The position numbers were made by a program, and so were the translations under genes. The notes under the pieces are model-generated. The model had not been told where the DNA came from and ran no database searches. It saw nothing but the letters and a program-made list of their open reading frames with translations. A stretch of DNA of 35,205 bases from a virus (Duplodnaviria > Heunggongvirae > Uroviricota > Caudoviricetes), in IMG/VR virus record IMGVR_UViG_2588253749_000005; one strand, given 5' to 3'. The first letter of the stretch is position 1, and every line of letters begins with the position of its first letter. This document shows positions 7,049-12,297 of this stretch, in pieces.

Positions 7049-8239
7049 TTAATTGCTGTTAACCGAGGTGACCAGATTTGCCAGGTATTTATCGGTAATA
7101 CGCTGGCGCAGGGTCAGGTTTTCGAGAGGAGGCACCGGTGTATAGTCGTAGTCGATATACAGTTTTCCGGCCTTGAGGGTTTCCGCATCGTTGGATTCTT
7201 CGCTGAACCAGCAGGTCGCATCCACGATATAGCCGTTTGTTTTCAGCTCACGGAATTTGGCATTGATGCCGTCAACGATGTCGCGAATCAGCGTTGCAGT
7301 GATGGGCTTGTCCACCGCCCACATGTGCGCCTCAGCCATCGTGTCGGCCAGCACCTGCGCGGTGCGGGTGTAGTTTTCAAAGAGGAACAGCGGGTCATCA
7401 GAGCAGGTACGGTTACCCCAGAAGCGGAAACCGTCACGGCGAATCAGCGTTGTGACACCTGACTCGTTCAACAGGTCAGCATCGGTGCCGGACTCCTGCA
7501 AATCCCAGAATACAGAGGCACTGATGCCGGTAACACCGTTTACCCCGACGTTGGACAGCGTTTTATGCCAGCCCTGCTCCTGGTCGATTTTGGCACGCAG
7601 ACCCAGCGCACGGGCGGTGGCATACGCGGTGGCGGTGGTACTGGCGACCGTATCCCATGCGAGGAAATCCGGCCAGATGACCATCAGCTCTCGCTGGCTG
7701 AAATTCTGGCGGTAGGCTTTCACCTCGGAAATGGTTTTACAGCCCCATGCGCTGATATACCCGAAAGCGCGCAGCTTCTGACAGACGGATGCCAGTGCAA
7801 CAGCCACCTCTTTGGTGTCCAGTCCCGGCACGCCGAGAATACGCGGTTTAACACCGGTTACCGACTCTGCCGCCAGCAGGGCTTTCAGTCCGGTATACTG
7901 ACCGTTTTCGTCAGTGGTGCCGATGATATTGGAAACGGTCTGCGCGAGTTTCGTTTCCTCGTCGTCGCCGGTGCCGTCTTCCACGCGCACAACAACAGTC
8001 ACTGGTTTTGACTGGTCGGCGATGGCCTGCAACGATGCCGCCAGCGTGCCTTTTTTACCGGCCTTTGCAATTGCGGTCTGCACATTGGTAATCAGCACAG
8101 GTTTATTGAGGGGGAAGGTTTCCGCATCCGCATCGCTGGCCGTGCAGACCATGCCGACAATGGCCGTGGATACAGTGGAAATGACGCGGGTGCCCTCGTT
8201 AATCTCCAGCACCTGCACGCCGTGATGATAGTCACTCAT
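7049..8239 (-). CDS. FI: Tail sheath protein FI
   Basis: 396 aa, ATG at 8239; recognised as P2 gpFI. Confidence 0.92.
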   Translation of the reverse strand: MSDYHHGVQVLEINEGTRVISTVSTAIVGMVCTASDADAETFPLNKPVLITNVQTAIAKAGKKGTLAASLQAIADQSKPVTVVVRVEDGTGDDEETKLAQTVSNIIGTTDENGQYTGLKALLAAESVTGVKPRILGVPGLDTKEVAVALASVCQKLRAFGYISAWGCKTISEVKAYRQNFSQRELMVIWPDFLAWDTVASTTATAYATARALGLRAKIDQEQGWHKTLSNVGVNGVTGISASVFWDLQESGTDADLLNESGVTTLIRRDGFRFWGNRTCSDDPLFLFENYTRTAQVLADTMAEAHMWAVDKPITATLIRDIVDGINAKFRELKTNGYIVDATCWFSEESNDAETLKAGKLYIDYDYTPVPPLENLTLRQRITDKYLANLVTSVNSN

Positions 8240-8337
8240 CCGTTTAACTCCGTGGTTAATGGGTGCAATTATTTTCTGTTGTGCAGAGCATGAGACGCTA
8301 TTTGACCTGGCTGGTCAGTGGATGAAACAACAGATAA

Positions 8338-8358
8338 AGAAAAGGCGGACAATCCGCC
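8338..8358 (-). terminator. Intrinsic terminator at the 3' side of the FI-G cargo island
   Basis: Minus strand reads GGCGG-attgt-CCGCC followed by TTTTTT; lies between the cargo gene ending at 8725 and the FI upstream region. Confidence 0.5.
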
Positions 8359-8724
8359 CGCCTGTCATGATTTGTACTCACTTATTTCCCGACTGACAAT
8401 TTACATAGCCAAAACGCTATCAAATCTGACAGTCTGCTTTGAGCGATCTGCGGACATTACTAACAGCATTCTGTATGAATAACGGGGGGTAGATCATTCC
8501 TGTCCTCACGACGACGCCTATCTATCATACAGTCGTTCTTTGGATCAAGACGCGTTCTGAAATGGTGTTTTTATGTATGTGCTGAATTCTGGGGCATAGA
8601 GTAAACCTTTCAAATTGCCAGAAACAGAAATGTGCGATTTAGTTGTCAAGTAATACCGGATATTTCAGCGATTCATCAAGAAATCATCGACCAGGCTGCT
8701 GTACATTCTCATCGGACGATTTTA

Positions 8725-9591
8725 CTATTCCTCAAGATCGCAGTTACTGCAATGACCTTCCATCCGGAATGCACCACATTCACAAGGCTCCATAGGAACA
8801 AAACCATCCATCTTGCTGTATTCACATTTATACCAGAGACAGACACCGGCCCTTTGTTCCGGTAAATAAATTACGGATGGGACACTACATTCAGGACATT
8901 CCTGAAAATCCCAAGTTTGCAGATTATTCAGGCTGAAACCACAACAGATACAGTGAGTCCGTGCCGGAAAGCTTTCACCTTGGTAAAGGATAAAATGTGA
9001 AAAACTCTCACAAACGGGACAAAGTGCAAGGGTGTATTCCTGGTTAACAGTTATATCAAGGAATTGTTGCTCAAGAGCGATGATGTCTTGACGTAAATCA
9101 GAGTTCCATGAATTTTCGGTCTCATCTGACTGAATTATGACGAATGCGGGACGAAAAATTTGTTGGTACAGTTCACTCAGTTGCATTGACAGTTCTTGCG
9201 GACGAACCTCAAGGGCAAAATGCTGAAGGTTATTACGCAACTGACCCACCGTTTTCATCATTTGTAATGCAGATTCAGAAAATTCGGCTGGGTAATATGT
9301 CTTTAACAGCTTACAAAGCTGGCTGACGTTGACAGATTTACACTGGTGTAATTCTGACTCGGTTGGATGCGCCGGATCCACACATTTTTCTTGAAGCGAT
9401 GCTGGATTAAAAATCGCTCCAGACCCATTGCGCGAAACTACGGCCTTCAATAATAGCTCAGCGGCCTGAAAGAGGTTAAGCAGGCACTGTTTGTAGTCAC
9501 GTCGATCATGCCCTTCTAGCGCTTTGTTAAAGTAGTCCAGCCCGGTTTTCACTGAATCCAACGCATTTTCTAGTAAGTTAAAACGGACCAT
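8725..9591 (-). CDS. Uncharacterised cargo protein: helical N-terminal domain with HEPN-like R-x4-H motif (RNNLQH) plus Cys-rich zinc-ribbon-like C-terminus
   Basis: Track ORF 8725..9666 starts at GTG; preferred start is the ATG at 9591 preceded by a G-rich RBS (about 288 aa); alternative ATG at 9615; C-terminal 100 aa has CPVC, CICC, CPEC, C-x4-C, CEC and CSNC motifs; AT-rich relative to phage genes. Confidence 0.6.
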   Translation of the reverse strand: MVRFNLLENALDSVKTGLDYFNKALEGHDRRDYKQCLLNLFQAAELLLKAVVSRNGSGAIFNPASLQEKCVDPAHPTESELHQCKSVNVSQLCKLLKTYYPAEFSESALQMMKTVGQLRNNLQHFALEVRPQELSMQLSELYQQIFRPAFVIIQSDETENSWNSDLRQDIIALEQQFLDITVNQEYTLALCPVCESFSHFILYQGESFPARTHCICCGFSLNNLQTWDFQECPECSVPSVIYLPEQRAGVCLWYKCEYSKMDGFVPMEPCECGAFRMEGHCSNCDLEE

Positions 9592-9756
9592 ATTAAAGCC
9601 CCCCCGAATAGGCATCGTCGTTATGCCAGCGCTTCCGCCAGTTACACAAATAGTGATTGTACCCACGAATATTGGGAACCTATTTTAGCATGTTTAACTT
9701 TAGTAGTACTGACACAACATTCATGGAGCGGACTGATTGACTTTTGGGGGCGCGTA

Positions 9757-9785
9757 TTTACAAACTCACTACAATGCTGTATAAT
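9757..9785 (+). promoter_or_regulatory. Candidate sigma70 promoter (TTTACA-17 nt-TATAAT) facing the small hydrophobic ORF
   Basis: -35 tttaca at 9757..9762, 17-nt spacer, -10 tataat at 9780..9785; plus strand, opposite to the flanking cargo genes. Confidence 0.45.
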
Positions 9786-9923
9786 TCGTGAAGAGTGAAT
9801 TTAGCTAGTGCATCCATAGGTTCAATTCCTATGACTACAATTCTCATCACAGCTCTCCCAATAGTCGCATTTATCCGTTACCTCAACGTGTTACTTAACA
9901 ATTACGTCAGTAAGGAGAAGCCT

Positions 9924-10106
9924 ATGAGTAAATTATTCTGCCATGAAGTACTATATGTATCTTGTTTCATTGAAACTTTTTGGGCTGGGGTGATAAGTGT
10001 AGTAGCGGGTCTGATGACGGGCGGTGTCCAAATTATTTTGGCACTAGCTAAATCTTCTCAATTTTTGTTTTTTTTCAAAGCACTTACACCCATAAATATT
10101 ATTTAA
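9924..10106 (+). CDS. Small hydrophobic protein (60 aa, predicted membrane-spanning)
   Basis: ATG at 9924 preceded by AAGGAG with a 6-nt spacer; hydrophobic core FWAGVISVVAGLMTGGVQIILALA; same frame is open from 9795 with an alternative ATG at 9831 (91 aa) lacking an RBS. Confidence 0.45.
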   Translation: MSKLFCHEVLYVSCFIETFWAGVISVVAGLMTGGVQIILALAKSSQFLFFFKALTPINII

Positions 10107-10371
10107 ATCAATAAAATAAGTCACTCTACGCATATTTTCCTTATCATGGTCTTTCGTGTTTTTGTACTCAACATGATCGTTTCCCCTTTCTTTAATACAC
10201 AGTGTGATTAGCTACGTCTTCTATTGGAGCGAAGTGGACGGGTTAATTGAGCTGAATGTCAGCTATGAGCGAGGAACGGACTTCAAGAAAGTACCTAACT
10301 GCGTATCGATTGCAAAATATGACAGTCTGACGGTGTTAAGGGCCGTGAGTGCAGCCCTTAAGAAAAAAGTA

Positions 10372-11307
10372 TTAATAATATATCCTGGCTTGCTCGCTCG
10401 TTTCGGTTAAGTTTATTTCATGGTAGTGATTATTTATAAAGTCACAAAAAGTACTAATTTTATCTTTGAGATTACTCATGCTATGCGTGATTTCGTCGTA
10501 TAAATCGCTTTCCTCCTGATTTCGACAGTGGTCACCGGGATTTATAAAACTATAAGTATCATTTGGTGCTGAATAATTATATGGAGCTTTTCTAAACAAG
10601 ATAATTAGATCACGCCAAGCCGTTGCAAAATCAATTGTAACATTCTTTAAAGCTGTATCATTCAGTTGAAAAACAGGTGAGTTTAAAATGTTCAAAATAT
10701 TATCGTATTCTTCAATAATTAATGAATGAATGTATTTTGCGCCCCACTGCAAATGGTCTATTGTTGAATAAAAATCAATATAATTCAACAATCTCGACAA
10801 ATTTGAGATATCTCTCTTGCGCAAAAATTCTTCCCTCGTCGGTTGGTGTCGTTCGAACATTTGCGGGTAGTACATTTTGAGTACAGCTGGGTCTTTGCTT
10901 AAATCAAAGCTAATATCCTCCCAGAAAACCACATCGACAGGAAACAGGCCTTTTAATTGTCTGGCATCATTGAGTGTTCTTACATAGCGCTGAATGCTAA
11001 CATCCCTGGGCGCTGTCGTAGCGATGTAAAGAACCGTAATTTTTGGGCGAAATTTTTCAGCCTTGAGTAATTCATCATCGATTGTCGCCGTACTGATTCC
11101 TGATACTGTATTTTTACACTGAATTCCAACGAAACGCCCAAGAGAGTCATCACCATATACATCAACTCCATCCTGCCGCTGCCCTGACCGTCCATGTCTG
11201 TTCAGATTAGGATTGGACCATCGCAGTTGGAATGAACTTTTGCACATATCCTCAAATTCGTCCCAAGATTTAGGGGGGGGTAACAACATTGAATTATATG
11301 TAACCAC
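10372..11307 (-). CDS. Uncharacterised cargo protein with N-terminal Mrr-type restriction-endonuclease-like (PD-(D/E)xK fold) domain
   Basis: 311-aa ORF; GTG at 11307 with AAAGGA 7 nt upstream, alternative ATG at 11289; N-terminal WDEFEDMC...GRSGQRQDGVDVYG...GRFVGIQCK matches the Mrr-catalytic-domain pattern (D-x-D ... Q-x-K); C-terminal 170 aa unrecognised; strongly AT-rich. Confidence 0.6.
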   Translation of the reverse strand: MVTYNSMLLPPPKSWDEFEDMCKSSFQLRWSNPNLNRHGRSGQRQDGVDVYGDDSLGRFVGIQCKNTVSGISTATIDDELLKAEKFRPKITVLYIATTAPRDVSIQRYVRTLNDARQLKGLFPVDVVFWEDISFDLSKDPAVLKMYYPQMFERHQPTREEFLRKRDISNLSRLLNYIDFYSTIDHLQWGAKYIHSLIIEEYDNILNILNSPVFQLNDTALKNVTIDFATAWRDLIILFRKAPYNYSAPNDTYSFINPGDHCRNQEESDLYDEITHSMSNLKDKISTFCDFINNHYHEINLTETSEQARIYY

Positions 11308-11769
11308 TTACTAATCCTTTATCTAAGATTCTTCATTTTCGTAATCACTATCATAATCATGCTTGATGTGCAATATCTTATTTGCCATGGTTATATGACG
11401 TGAACATAATATATACTGTAAGTATAAGCAGAATTTATTAATGGTGTTCGCCACTCAACGTAATGGTTTCACACTCTAAGGTTCTTTTTTAATAAATCAA
11501 AACATTATGGACAGTGAATCATATCGGAAATGGTTCCTTTTAAATTGAATAACGGCCCATAGTACACAGGTGTATGTGTTAATCGATTTTTCAGACGTTT
11601 TTTTTCGCCTAACATGAGATTTCGTTCGATTGAGCACCAGACCCAATTACCACTATTTAATGATTTAGGTCGAGTAGTAGTAACGTCAGCTCTTGGCACA
11701 TAGCGGACTGTCAGATTAGGCTTTACTCTGTGCTATAGATATGTAAGCTCACACCAGAGATCATACAAC

Positions 11770-12297
11770 TTATTGCGGCATTTCCGGCCATTCGGGATTT
11801 GCAGGATCCACACGACTGACCAGAACGCTGTAGCGTTCCCATGCTTCCAGTCGGCTGCGTTCCTCATCCGTCGCCATATTCAGCCTGACAGCGCGTTCCA
11901 GCGGCAAAATCACGGATTCAGCTTCGGAAAGTAAAGCTGCCTTTTGTGATTCGGCCTGTTGTTGCTGTTCGTCTGCCGTATAAATCCGCTTAATCACGGC
12001 ACCATCCTTAAACATCCATTTACCTGAGTCATCAGCACGTCGGTTGGAGGTAATATCAGGAACCTCGACAACGCTGAAACCTTCAGGGTTAAGCGTTGAA
12101 GCATCTCTGGTGATGCCGACAATTATATTATTCTCGTCGTAAACAATCTTTATCGTGTCTTCCTGAAAATTACTTACTTCCTCATACCAGTTTTTTCCCT
12201 CTTCGGACCATAACCAGATAACATCAAAATTTTTTGTCAGTTGATATTGGGCAACAGTTTTTGGATTACCCGCAGTAATATTTTTTAAATGCTGCAT
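11770..12297 (-). CDS. G: Tail fiber assembly chaperone G
   Basis: 175 aa, ATG at 12297; recognised as P2 gpG-type; directly downstream of H. Confidence 0.85.

Follow-up and report, generated by a model that had tools for sequence, protein, structure and literature searches.

The window considered here is the whole of a 35,205-nucleotide stretch of DNA (IMG/VR record IMGVR_UViG_2588253749_000005), which is a P2-like prophage of E. coli and whose positions 8200-11800 are 100% identical to strain TW10573. The cargo interval between its genes G and FI corresponds to the Z/fun locus, a hotspot for defense cargo in P2 (PMC13586616; PMC9122126), and within it lies a small open reading frame (ORF) that a preliminary description, made from the sequence alone, had singled out as the strongly promoted gene of a small hydrophobic membrane protein. 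That proposal is borne out. Judging from its sequence, the gene belongs to a previously unnamed family of small inner-membrane proteins with two predicted helices, and its mRNA appears to combine a long-range helix, formed by the 5′ end of the transcript and the distal part of the coding region, with a hairpin that contains the first start codon. We hold it very probable that the gene is real and that both RNA elements are real. What emerges is a small membrane peptide under structured-mRNA control, and neither the protein family nor the RNA architecture is described in the libraries searched (Pfam, NCBIfam, PHROGs, PADLOC, Rfam, and PDB). Small ORFs in defense hotspots are usually ignored or assigned to the neighboring system; this one is a conserved mobile unit in itself.

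Coding evidence and protein family

The preliminary description took the product to be a peptide of 60 amino acids (aa), mostly one hydrophobic helix, that starts at ATG 9924. PGAP (NCBI) calls exactly this ORF in the identical E. coli TW10573 sequence (hypothetical protein WP_021530427.1), and the 60-aa form is indeed predicted as one long helix (AlphaFold2; predicted local distance difference test, pLDDT, 67). The gene, however, is one of 91 aa and two helices that begins at ATG 9831 (Table 1; pLDDT 71 for the long form). Its N-terminal transmembrane segment, the probable dual start, and both conserved RNA elements had escaped the preliminary description. No stop codon interrupts the reading frame from 9795 onward, conservation as coding sequence sets in at ATG 9831 at the latest, and the stop codon is TAA 10104-10106; the hydropathy peaks of the long form fall at residues 3-22 and 40-74.

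Conservation of the ORF as coding in related islands, the lack of which the preliminary description had named as grounds for rejecting it, is found both in codon-position bias and in synonymous differences (pS) well in excess of non-synonymous ones (pN). Among 10 close variants of the region, nucleotide diversity (π) is 0.24 in the promoter, 0.05-0.07 in the transcribed block 9792-10061, and 0.21-0.23 after 10061. From ATG 9924 to the LAK codons, the variable columns of this close family are distributed 14/3/7 by codon position. One E. coli allele carries a 3-nt in-frame insertion in the ORF, and a 2-nt indel in a T-run between E. coli alleles alters only the C-terminal tail and the stop. When the window was compared in frame 0 with a more distant homologous locus (L056; such loci are designated by L numbers below), pS/pN was 0.75/0.17 in the N-terminal extension and 0.40/0.16 in the core, as against pS of 0.34 and 0.07 with pN of 0.29 and 0.39 for the extension in the two shifted frames, and pS of 0.27 and 0.11 with pN of 0.21 and 0.26 for the core. 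Comparisons with L043, L058, and L060 gave the same pattern of pS above pN. Since purifying selection acts in frame 0 only, in both halves, and the N-terminal part has homologs, the ORF runs from ATG 9831 and comprises 91 aa.

An exhaustive HMMER profile search of 1.84 billion proteins returned 15 family members with E <= 1e-3, and a profile word-index search returned 31 clusters, all named "hypothetical" and all from Enterobacterales (Salmonella, Enterobacter, Hafnia, Buttiauxella, Dickeya, Phytobacter, and Serratia). Many distant members have a hydrophobic N-terminal segment of ~31 residues homologous to window positions 9831-9923, with the pattern ..LIRYxSVLL..NKEKP-MNK.., and the core pattern of the family is ...LIRYxSVLL..NKExxM(N/S)K...SCxxETxWAG...GG.Q..LALAK. 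Residues E48, T49, and W51 are invariant, and M32, A52, L72, A73, and K74 nearly so, among homologs that have only 31-49% identity. Product length in the family is 75-115 aa. The conserved protein ends at LAK (Lys codon 10050-10052) and the sequence beyond is unconstrained; in a Hafnia variant, the short form ends after its codon 46. The protein has no match in Pfam, NCBIfam, PHROGs, or PADLOC and no relative in PDB, and tblastn found no match to it in 50,697 phage records. Relatives of the L043 and L056 types were not found in complete E. coli genomes.

Promoter, RNA elements, and translation starts

The promoter TTTACA-17-TATAAT is present as the preliminary description had claimed, with the -35 box at 9757-9762, a 17-nt spacer, and the -10 box at 9780-9785, and no other sigma-70 site in the 35-kb window, whichever strand is considered, scores 11/12 or better; the chance expectation for such a site is 0.11 per shuffled 3.6-kb region. 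Both hexamers occupy the same position in 10/10 close variants although the promoter DNA around them is the least conserved part of the unit, which makes the signal more than chance. Distant loci have equivalent promoters, read from their sequences, immediately ahead of where the closing helix described below has its 5′ arm. The transcript ends of the small-gene unit are predictions. The plus strand has no predicted intrinsic terminator in 8200-11800, so that read-through antisense into the neighboring 311-aa gene is possible; distant homologs have a clear hairpin-plus-T-run terminator right after the ORF. The same description had the ORF facing a minus-strand promoter of the divergent HEPN gene, and this was not upheld: the consensus scan gave no minus-strand sigma-70 site between 9592 and 9760, the one candidate near that gene being an extended -10 element (TGcTAAAAT, -10 at 9687-9682) with a poor -35. 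A candidate antisense promoter, TTGAGA-18-AATAAT (10061-10032, minus strand, 10/12), was also rejected, as it sits in the near-invariant block and is not conserved in distant homologs.

The first RNA element is a helix that would close the transcript from its 5′ end to the end of the conserved coding region. Within its arms (Table 1), ATTTAGCTAGTGC at 9799-9811 is a perfect 13-nt complement of GCACTAGCTAAAT at 10041-10053, the codons for A-L-A-K. In every copy of the unit it is the sole inverted repeat that reaches 10 nt, and no second complementary stretch of at least 10 nt was found within the unit. The helix is 13-19 bp long, and its 5′ arm always begins a few nt after the -10 box. Both arms hardly vary in the close family and change together in distant homologs: those of L043 are GTGTTTAGCCAGTA paired with TACTGGCTAAACAC, the helix of L046 has 18 bp with one G-U, and those of L045 and L044 have 16-17 bp with one mismatch. 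Behind Lys comes a free codon (TCT, CAC, CGC, TAT, and others), whose changes the leader mirrors; the leader also covaries with the third base of the Lys codon, and in L060 a codon change from LAK to LDK (Ala to Asp) is matched by a G-to-T change in the leader. With the arm register set by anchoring on TTAGC/GCTAA, 90.5% of cells are paired across 16 distinct sequences and 9/19 pairs show compensatory changes. Doubly changed cells number 29, compared with 12.3 +/- 2.7 in shuffles (0/500), counts that rest on 16 related sequences and in which the shuffle result is not a probability; slid controls gave at most 3 doubly changed pairs. Covariation within the close family (10 variants, 95% identity) was uninformative, with 0 compensatory pairs, no better than shuffles. 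Mismatches on the plus strand comprise 26 G-U and 8 A-C, an excess that favors a helix in plus-strand RNA, and in 10/11 homologs folded the 5′ arm was paired with a probability of 0.86-1.0.

The second element, 3 nt after the 5′ arm, is a hairpin that resembles the T-arm of a tRNA, its loop TTCRAnn being T-loop-like, and its 3′ strand holds the first start codon, ATG 9831. Compensatory changes occur in 4/6 of its pairs among 9 distinct sequences (variants CAGG/CCTG, GTAGG/CCTAC, and CATGAG/CTCATG), a result reached in 0/500 shuffles. Membership of a tRNA, tmRNA, or known RNA family was considered and rejected, as ARAGORN and Rfam (gathering threshold and E <= 10) returned nothing; on the 325 nt searched, there was no tRNA or tmRNA match even at E <= 10.

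Translation probably starts at two sites, to give a long form from ATG 9831 and a 60-aa form from ATG 9924. The AAGGAG that the preliminary description had placed at ideal spacing before the latter was found at 9912-9917, 6 nt ahead, and this internal Shine-Dalgarno (SD) sequence is kept in most family members, as a purine run followed by 6 nt and an ATG, though the encoded residues change: AAGGAG or AAGGAA encodes NKEKP, AAGGGGG encodes NKGVP, AAGGAG encodes NKELP or SKEPH, and GAGGAG encodes NEEKL. A Lys codon in this run is always AAG. From this conservation, we read ATG 9924 as a second initiation site that is likely to be used. At the position of the first start, L042 has GTG, and L044 and L045 have an ATG 5 nt further on. 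Masking of the internal SD by an anti-SD, 3′ or 5′ of it, was rejected as a general feature, its partners being inconsistent and its pairing probability average; L046, a single sequence, has a 12-nt perfect complementarity to the internal SD.

The mobile unit and its neighbors

Promoter, structured leader, ORF, and a moderately conserved 3′ region recur together as an autonomous unit (Table 1). In five independent contexts it begins abruptly on the left at 9736, which is 21 bp before the -35 box, and its right boundary lies at ~10194-10240. Together with the divergent HEPN gene it also moves as one piece, a 1.85-kb module found in the P2 hotspot, near paoD beside a lambdoid tail-fiber region, and in islands in Serratia, Phytobacter, and Mixta. 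Complete E. coli genomes contain three alleles of the region, in 27/5,426 genomes. Without the HEPN gene, the unit occurs beside genes for a 203-aa DUF6037 protein (Dickeya; one metagenome contig), a 1,615-aa NERD-helicase (Hafnia), and a 101-aa protein next to an integrase. Homology among these non-HEPN copies (L016, L017, L018, and L021) extends 68-127 bp further left of the position equivalent to 9736, DNA that the window is without; if this extra segment holds an antitoxin small RNA (sRNA), the window copy has lost it.

Table 1. Features of the small-gene unit and its surroundings in the window.
Feature	Position	Strand	Basis or remark
Sigma-70 promoter TTTACA-17-TATAAT, predicted transcription start ~9791-9793	9757-9785	plus	consensus scan
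Closing helix, 5′ arm GAGTGAATTTAGCTAGTGC, very 5′ end of predicted transcript	9793-9811	plus	inverted repeat, covariation
Hairpin like a tRNA T-arm, CATAGG-TTCAATT-CCTATG, 3′ strand with ATG 9831	9815-9833	plus	covariation
Long ORF, 91 aa, two predicted helices (residues 2-27, 33-85)	9831-10106	plus	homology, pS/pN, AlphaFold2
Internal SD AAGGAG (9912-9917), 6-nt spacer, ATG 9924, start of 60-aa form	9912-9926	plus	sequence, conservation
Closing helix, 3′ arm GCACTAGCTAAATCTTCTC, codons for A-L-A-K-S-S	10041-10059	plus	inverted repeat, covariation
Unconserved C-terminal tail, frameshift-tolerant, T-run with indels	10053-10106	plus	π 0.23, allele indel
3′ region of unit, moderately conserved	10107-10240	plus	close-variant diversity, π 0.21
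Autonomous unit: promoter, structured leader, small ORF, ~130 nt of 3′ region	9736-~10240	plus	recurrence at 79-85% nucleotide identity
1.85-kb module, HEPN gene and small-gene unit, moving as one piece	8433-10283		found in several sites
Tail sheath gene FI	7049-8239	minus	flank of cargo interval
Divergent neighbor, 288 aa, N-terminal HEPN domain and Cys-rich zinc-ribbon tail	8725-9591	minus	domain and PADLOC matches
Convergent neighbor, 311 aa, phrog_8991, function unknown	10372-11307	minus	PHROGs match
Tail-fiber assembly gene G	11770-12297	minus	other flank of cargo interval

Three genes make up the cargo of this prophage, those of the 288-aa HEPN protein, the small ORF, and the 311-aa protein, and the small ORF is on the strand opposite to both of its neighbors, in agreement with the preliminary description. 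Sequenced P2-type phages match the interval at its flanks only. The HEPN protein has the motif RNNLQH, in which R119, N120, Q123, and H124 are invariant, and matches the PADLOC candidate PDC-S64 (E = 2e-21); a start of its gene at GTG 9666 was ruled out, as all homologs have the MV(K/R)F start that corresponds to ATG 9591. For the 311-aa protein, no match was found in Pfam, PADLOC, or NCBIfam, and phrog_8991 is the sole match. By eye, its N-terminal part (…DGVDVYGDD…GIQCKN…) resembles a PD-(D/E)xK nuclease motif. In Mixta theicola, the unit is followed downstream (L004, 2315-3257) by a 210-aa protein whose N-terminus (…GSICRGE…SDIDMLAIV…) is nucleotidyltransferase-like, and by a 109-aa ORF, a pair that resembles, also by eye, a toxin-antitoxin (TA) pair of the MNT/HEPN type.

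HEPN homologs at 68% identity or less are without the small-gene unit. Those with a zinc ribbon at 52-68% identity (L005-L008) are the second gene of a two-gene operon, in which a co-directional 367-aa gene ends 1 nt before the HEPN start (L005-L007) or a co-directional 319-aa gene ends 11 nt before it (L008); L068 has neither the unit nor a co-directional upstream gene. About 50 nt of the window (9592-9641) are homologous to the 3′ end of the 367-aa gene, the partner gene itself being absent, and the P2 cargo HEPN may thus be a truncated "solo" HEPN system. The window copy of the small-gene unit appears to have been carried into the P2 hotspot together with it. Because the unit occurs beside unrelated genes and is absent from HEPN homologs, the small gene is not a conserved partner of the HEPN protein. 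Nor is there support for the earlier suggestion that it regulates the island, or for a specific tie to either flanking gene, given that the unit lies beside four unrelated divergent genes and also in non-defense contexts.

Distant members lie 0-4 kb from a predicted prophage end in IMG/VR contigs. At seven loci (L056-L059, L061, L045, and L047), the ORF runs directly into the 3′ part of a tRNA-Pro and its terminator, and L056 (610-690) includes a 55-nt stretch 100% identical to an annotated E. coli tRNA-Pro. The side with the tRNA-Pro fragment is the attR of elements integrated in that tRNA. The "C-terminal tails" that databases give for several family proteins are this tRNA-Pro fragment in translation. 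An integrase is next door in L044 and L021, and L043 lies inside a lambdoid prophage, where it adjoins what we take to be a tRNA-Leu fragment. Other neighbors of these relatives are an O-antigen-type acyltransferase, an EAL protein, a pore-forming colicin, UmuC-like genes, and DUF2971 genes. The members of the family are thus cargo or edge genes of integrated elements.

Two other groups of matches were set aside. Positions 10171-10272 (100 bp) are found alone, at 97-98% identity, on E. coli plasmids of ~160-207 kb and on one chromosome, between fragments of the insertion sequences IS3, IS1, and IS66, and were taken as a remnant of the unit that such elements have cut. Matches to a 21-mer in human-gut metagenome contigs (L029, L030, L038, and L039) belong to unrelated loci and were judged chance; these contigs share exactly TACCTCAACGTGTTACTTAAC, in a locus where a 20-bp inverted repeat has a copy of CGTGTTACTTAAC on either side.

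Possible functions and comparison with known systems

The reading that we tentatively favor, with somewhat less than even confidence, is that of a membrane peptide, putatively toxic and gated at translation, akin to hok/mok or to a dual-start holin. Of the roles named in the preliminary description, a membrane-disrupting toxin and superinfection exclusion are both kept as candidates. The transcript would have its 5′ end locked by pairing with the distal part of the coding region, and the hairpin next to this helix would clamp the first AUG, so that translation would be limited or conditional. Ribosomes at the LALAK codons would open this closure, which could couple translation to the exposure of the 5′ end or of the first start. 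The short form, with helix 2 only, might be the active or toxic one, and the long form restrained or antagonizing. Such a gene may ride along with prophage cargo as a module for addiction, abortive infection, or exclusion, rather than serve as a subunit of the HEPN system. Structured mRNAs that occlude start codons are typical for products that harm membranes, and a putatively toxic product is favored because such restraint of a tiny hydrophobic product is typical of hok/mok and other type I toxins and of dual-start holins.

Several observations weigh against a gated toxin. No antitoxin was found. Sites that look like antisense promoters are weak and do not keep their position in distant homologs, so that none counts as conserved, and the minus strand of the unit has no terminator. 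Type I TA families in Rfam, Pfam, and NCBIfam gave no match. The invariant polar ETxW in helix 2 looks more like a fit to a specific protein-protein or ion contact than to generic membrane damage. There is no good SD before ATG 9831, the nearest being an AGG 8 nt upstream, and L056 and L057 are without an ATG at the position of the first start. The pairing probability of the internal SD (0.47-0.87) is about the transcript average, with partners that vary between homologs. The window allele, finally, has three private non-synonymous changes (T2, N24, and E39 of the long form) and zero private synonymous ones, and could be attenuated.

Several of the same observations suit a harmless small membrane protein of the lysogen that modulates a host membrane component, in superinfection exclusion or another lysogenic conversion, an explanation that we consider unlikely though by no means negligible. 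The RNA structures would then merely stabilize the mRNA and set a low, steady expression, a base-paired 5′ end being known to stabilize mRNA against RNase E. The constitutive-type promoter, the positions in prophage cargo and near attachment (att) sites, the proximity of lysogenic-conversion genes such as the O-antigen-type acyltransferase, and the failure to find an antitoxin all agree with such a role, and the invariant ETxW and LAK motifs suggest a specific partner. However, a start codon in a hairpin, a dual start, and a 5′-3′ closure are unusual for a benign constitutive gene, and neither PHROGs and Pfam nor tblastn against the phage records revealed homology to a known exclusion protein.

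Distinctly unlikely, in our estimate, is a single-gene membrane toxin/antitoxin with two isoforms, in which the long form would restrain the short one and the ratio of the two would be set by an mRNA switch. In this switch, the 5′-3′ closing helix would stack on the T-arm mimic, within which the first start codon is hidden, and events that open or cut the fold could trigger it, such as translation through LALAK, the action of nucleases or tRNA-directed enzymes on the mimic, or RNA decay induced by a phage. If this were true, the unit would be an autonomous guard module kept at prophage ends and in defense hotspots.

That the protein is an accessory part of the neighboring defense gene, as a membrane effector, anchor, or regulator of what is here a HEPN-zinc-ribbon protein, is improbable. 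The gene on the promoter side is always divergent and defense-like in the close family (HEPN, DUF6037, NERD-helicase, or the 101-aa protein), AbiJ/NERD or kinase genes lie beyond DUF6037, and the HEPN gene and the unit are co-inherited at 93-97% identity in five genera. These neighbors are nonetheless mutually unrelated and are separated from the unit by 160-350 nt of non-homologous DNA; PDC-S64 is a single-gene model in PADLOC, the more distant HEPN homologs that are without the unit mostly have the co-directional 367- or 319-aa gene, and distant members of the family lie beside non-defense genes or att sites.

More improbable still is that the inverted repeat acts as DNA, as protein-binding or recombination sites such as integrase arm sites or the ends of an invertible or miniature mobile segment. 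Watson-Crick covariation alone cannot separate an RNA helix from two co-evolving copies of a site, the arms bracket exactly the most conserved block, relatives adjoin att cores and integrases, and the minus strand also folds well (z = -4.2). Against this stand the excess of plus-strand G-U over A-C mismatches, the constant position of the 5′ arm at the transcript's 5′ end, the retention of the arms in copies far from an att site or integrase, the window included, and the single orientation of all copies seen relative to their flanks. A non-coding RNA of ~270 nt with an incidental ORF deserves hardly any credence: conservation in the close family is equal over the whole transcribed block, the leader ahead of the first ATG included, divergence at synonymous sites is about twofold lower than in the flanks, and two RNA elements are backed by covariation, but frame-specific purifying selection in both halves of the ORF largely refutes the idea, and the residues that stay invariant in remote homologs, the in-frame indel, and the conserved SD and ATG also speak against it.

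The closing helix forces the LALAK codons and the 5′ leader to evolve in concert. Should the peptide be toxic, the unit would represent a type-I-like module of a new sort, with no antisense RNA in evidence, and it could explain how cargo cassettes and prophage ends are stabilized or how they abort infection. If it is not, the gene offers a clean model for translation control by 5′-3′ mRNA closure together with a T-loop mimic at the start codon. Constructs cloned as a "HEPN system with native promoter" would, on these predictions, carry a second active gene.

Among known systems, hok/mok/sok of plasmid R1 and its chromosomal and prophage counterparts share several properties with the unit. It is established that hok mRNA is closed by the tac-fbi helix, that mok is an upstream reading frame, and that these genes are carried on plasmids and prophages. 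The unit likewise specifies a small hydrophobic membrane protein under a strong constitutive promoter, on a long mRNA closed by a long-range 5′-3′ helix with compensatory pairs, has an upstream reading frame tied to translation of the putative toxin frame, and is a self-contained piece of ~0.5 kb. In contrast to hok, there is no sequence, Rfam, or Pfam similarity, and no Sok-like antisense promoter or terminator was found here. The upstream segment is in frame and adds an N-terminal transmembrane helix, whereas mok overlaps in another frame; the 3′ arm lies inside the ORF, in the LALAK codons, and not at the mRNA 3′ end; and the family product has 75-115 aa, two helices, and the invariant ETxW.

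Other chromosomal type I toxins (tisB/istR-1, zorO/orzO, dinQ/agrB, and shoB/ohsC) also combine a long structured 5′ untranslated region (UTR) with a hydrophobic peptide. Their primary transcripts are poorly translated, and a divergent upstream sRNA gene is complementary to the UTR. By contrast, the window and the non-HEPN variants do not even have the DNA upstream of 9736 in common, and no sRNA with such complementarity was found here. Exclusion proteins encoded by morons (HK97 gp15, P22 SieA/B) are expressed in the lysogen and resemble the product as small membrane proteins with their own promoter and a position in prophage cargo; they have no homology to it, and to our knowledge an mRNA architecture like this one has not been described for them.

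Dual-start holins, such as lambda S105/S107 with its sdi hairpin and the S68/S71 pinholin of phage 21, likewise have two in-frame starts and a hairpin at the first, and in the phage 21 pinholin the first transmembrane helix restrains the second. The two starts of the small ORF are 31 codons apart, compared with 2-3 in the holins; its neighbors are the HEPN and phrog_8991 genes, with no endolysin or lysis cassette nearby; its promoter is of the sigma-70 type and lies in the cargo region rather than in a late operon; and its C-terminal tail is unconserved and not charged, with no holin match in PHROGs. Although on the features tested the gene belongs to neither hok/mok nor the dual-start holins, because it has no known antitoxin RNA, no homology, and no lysis cassette, these two are the systems that it most resembles in its working.

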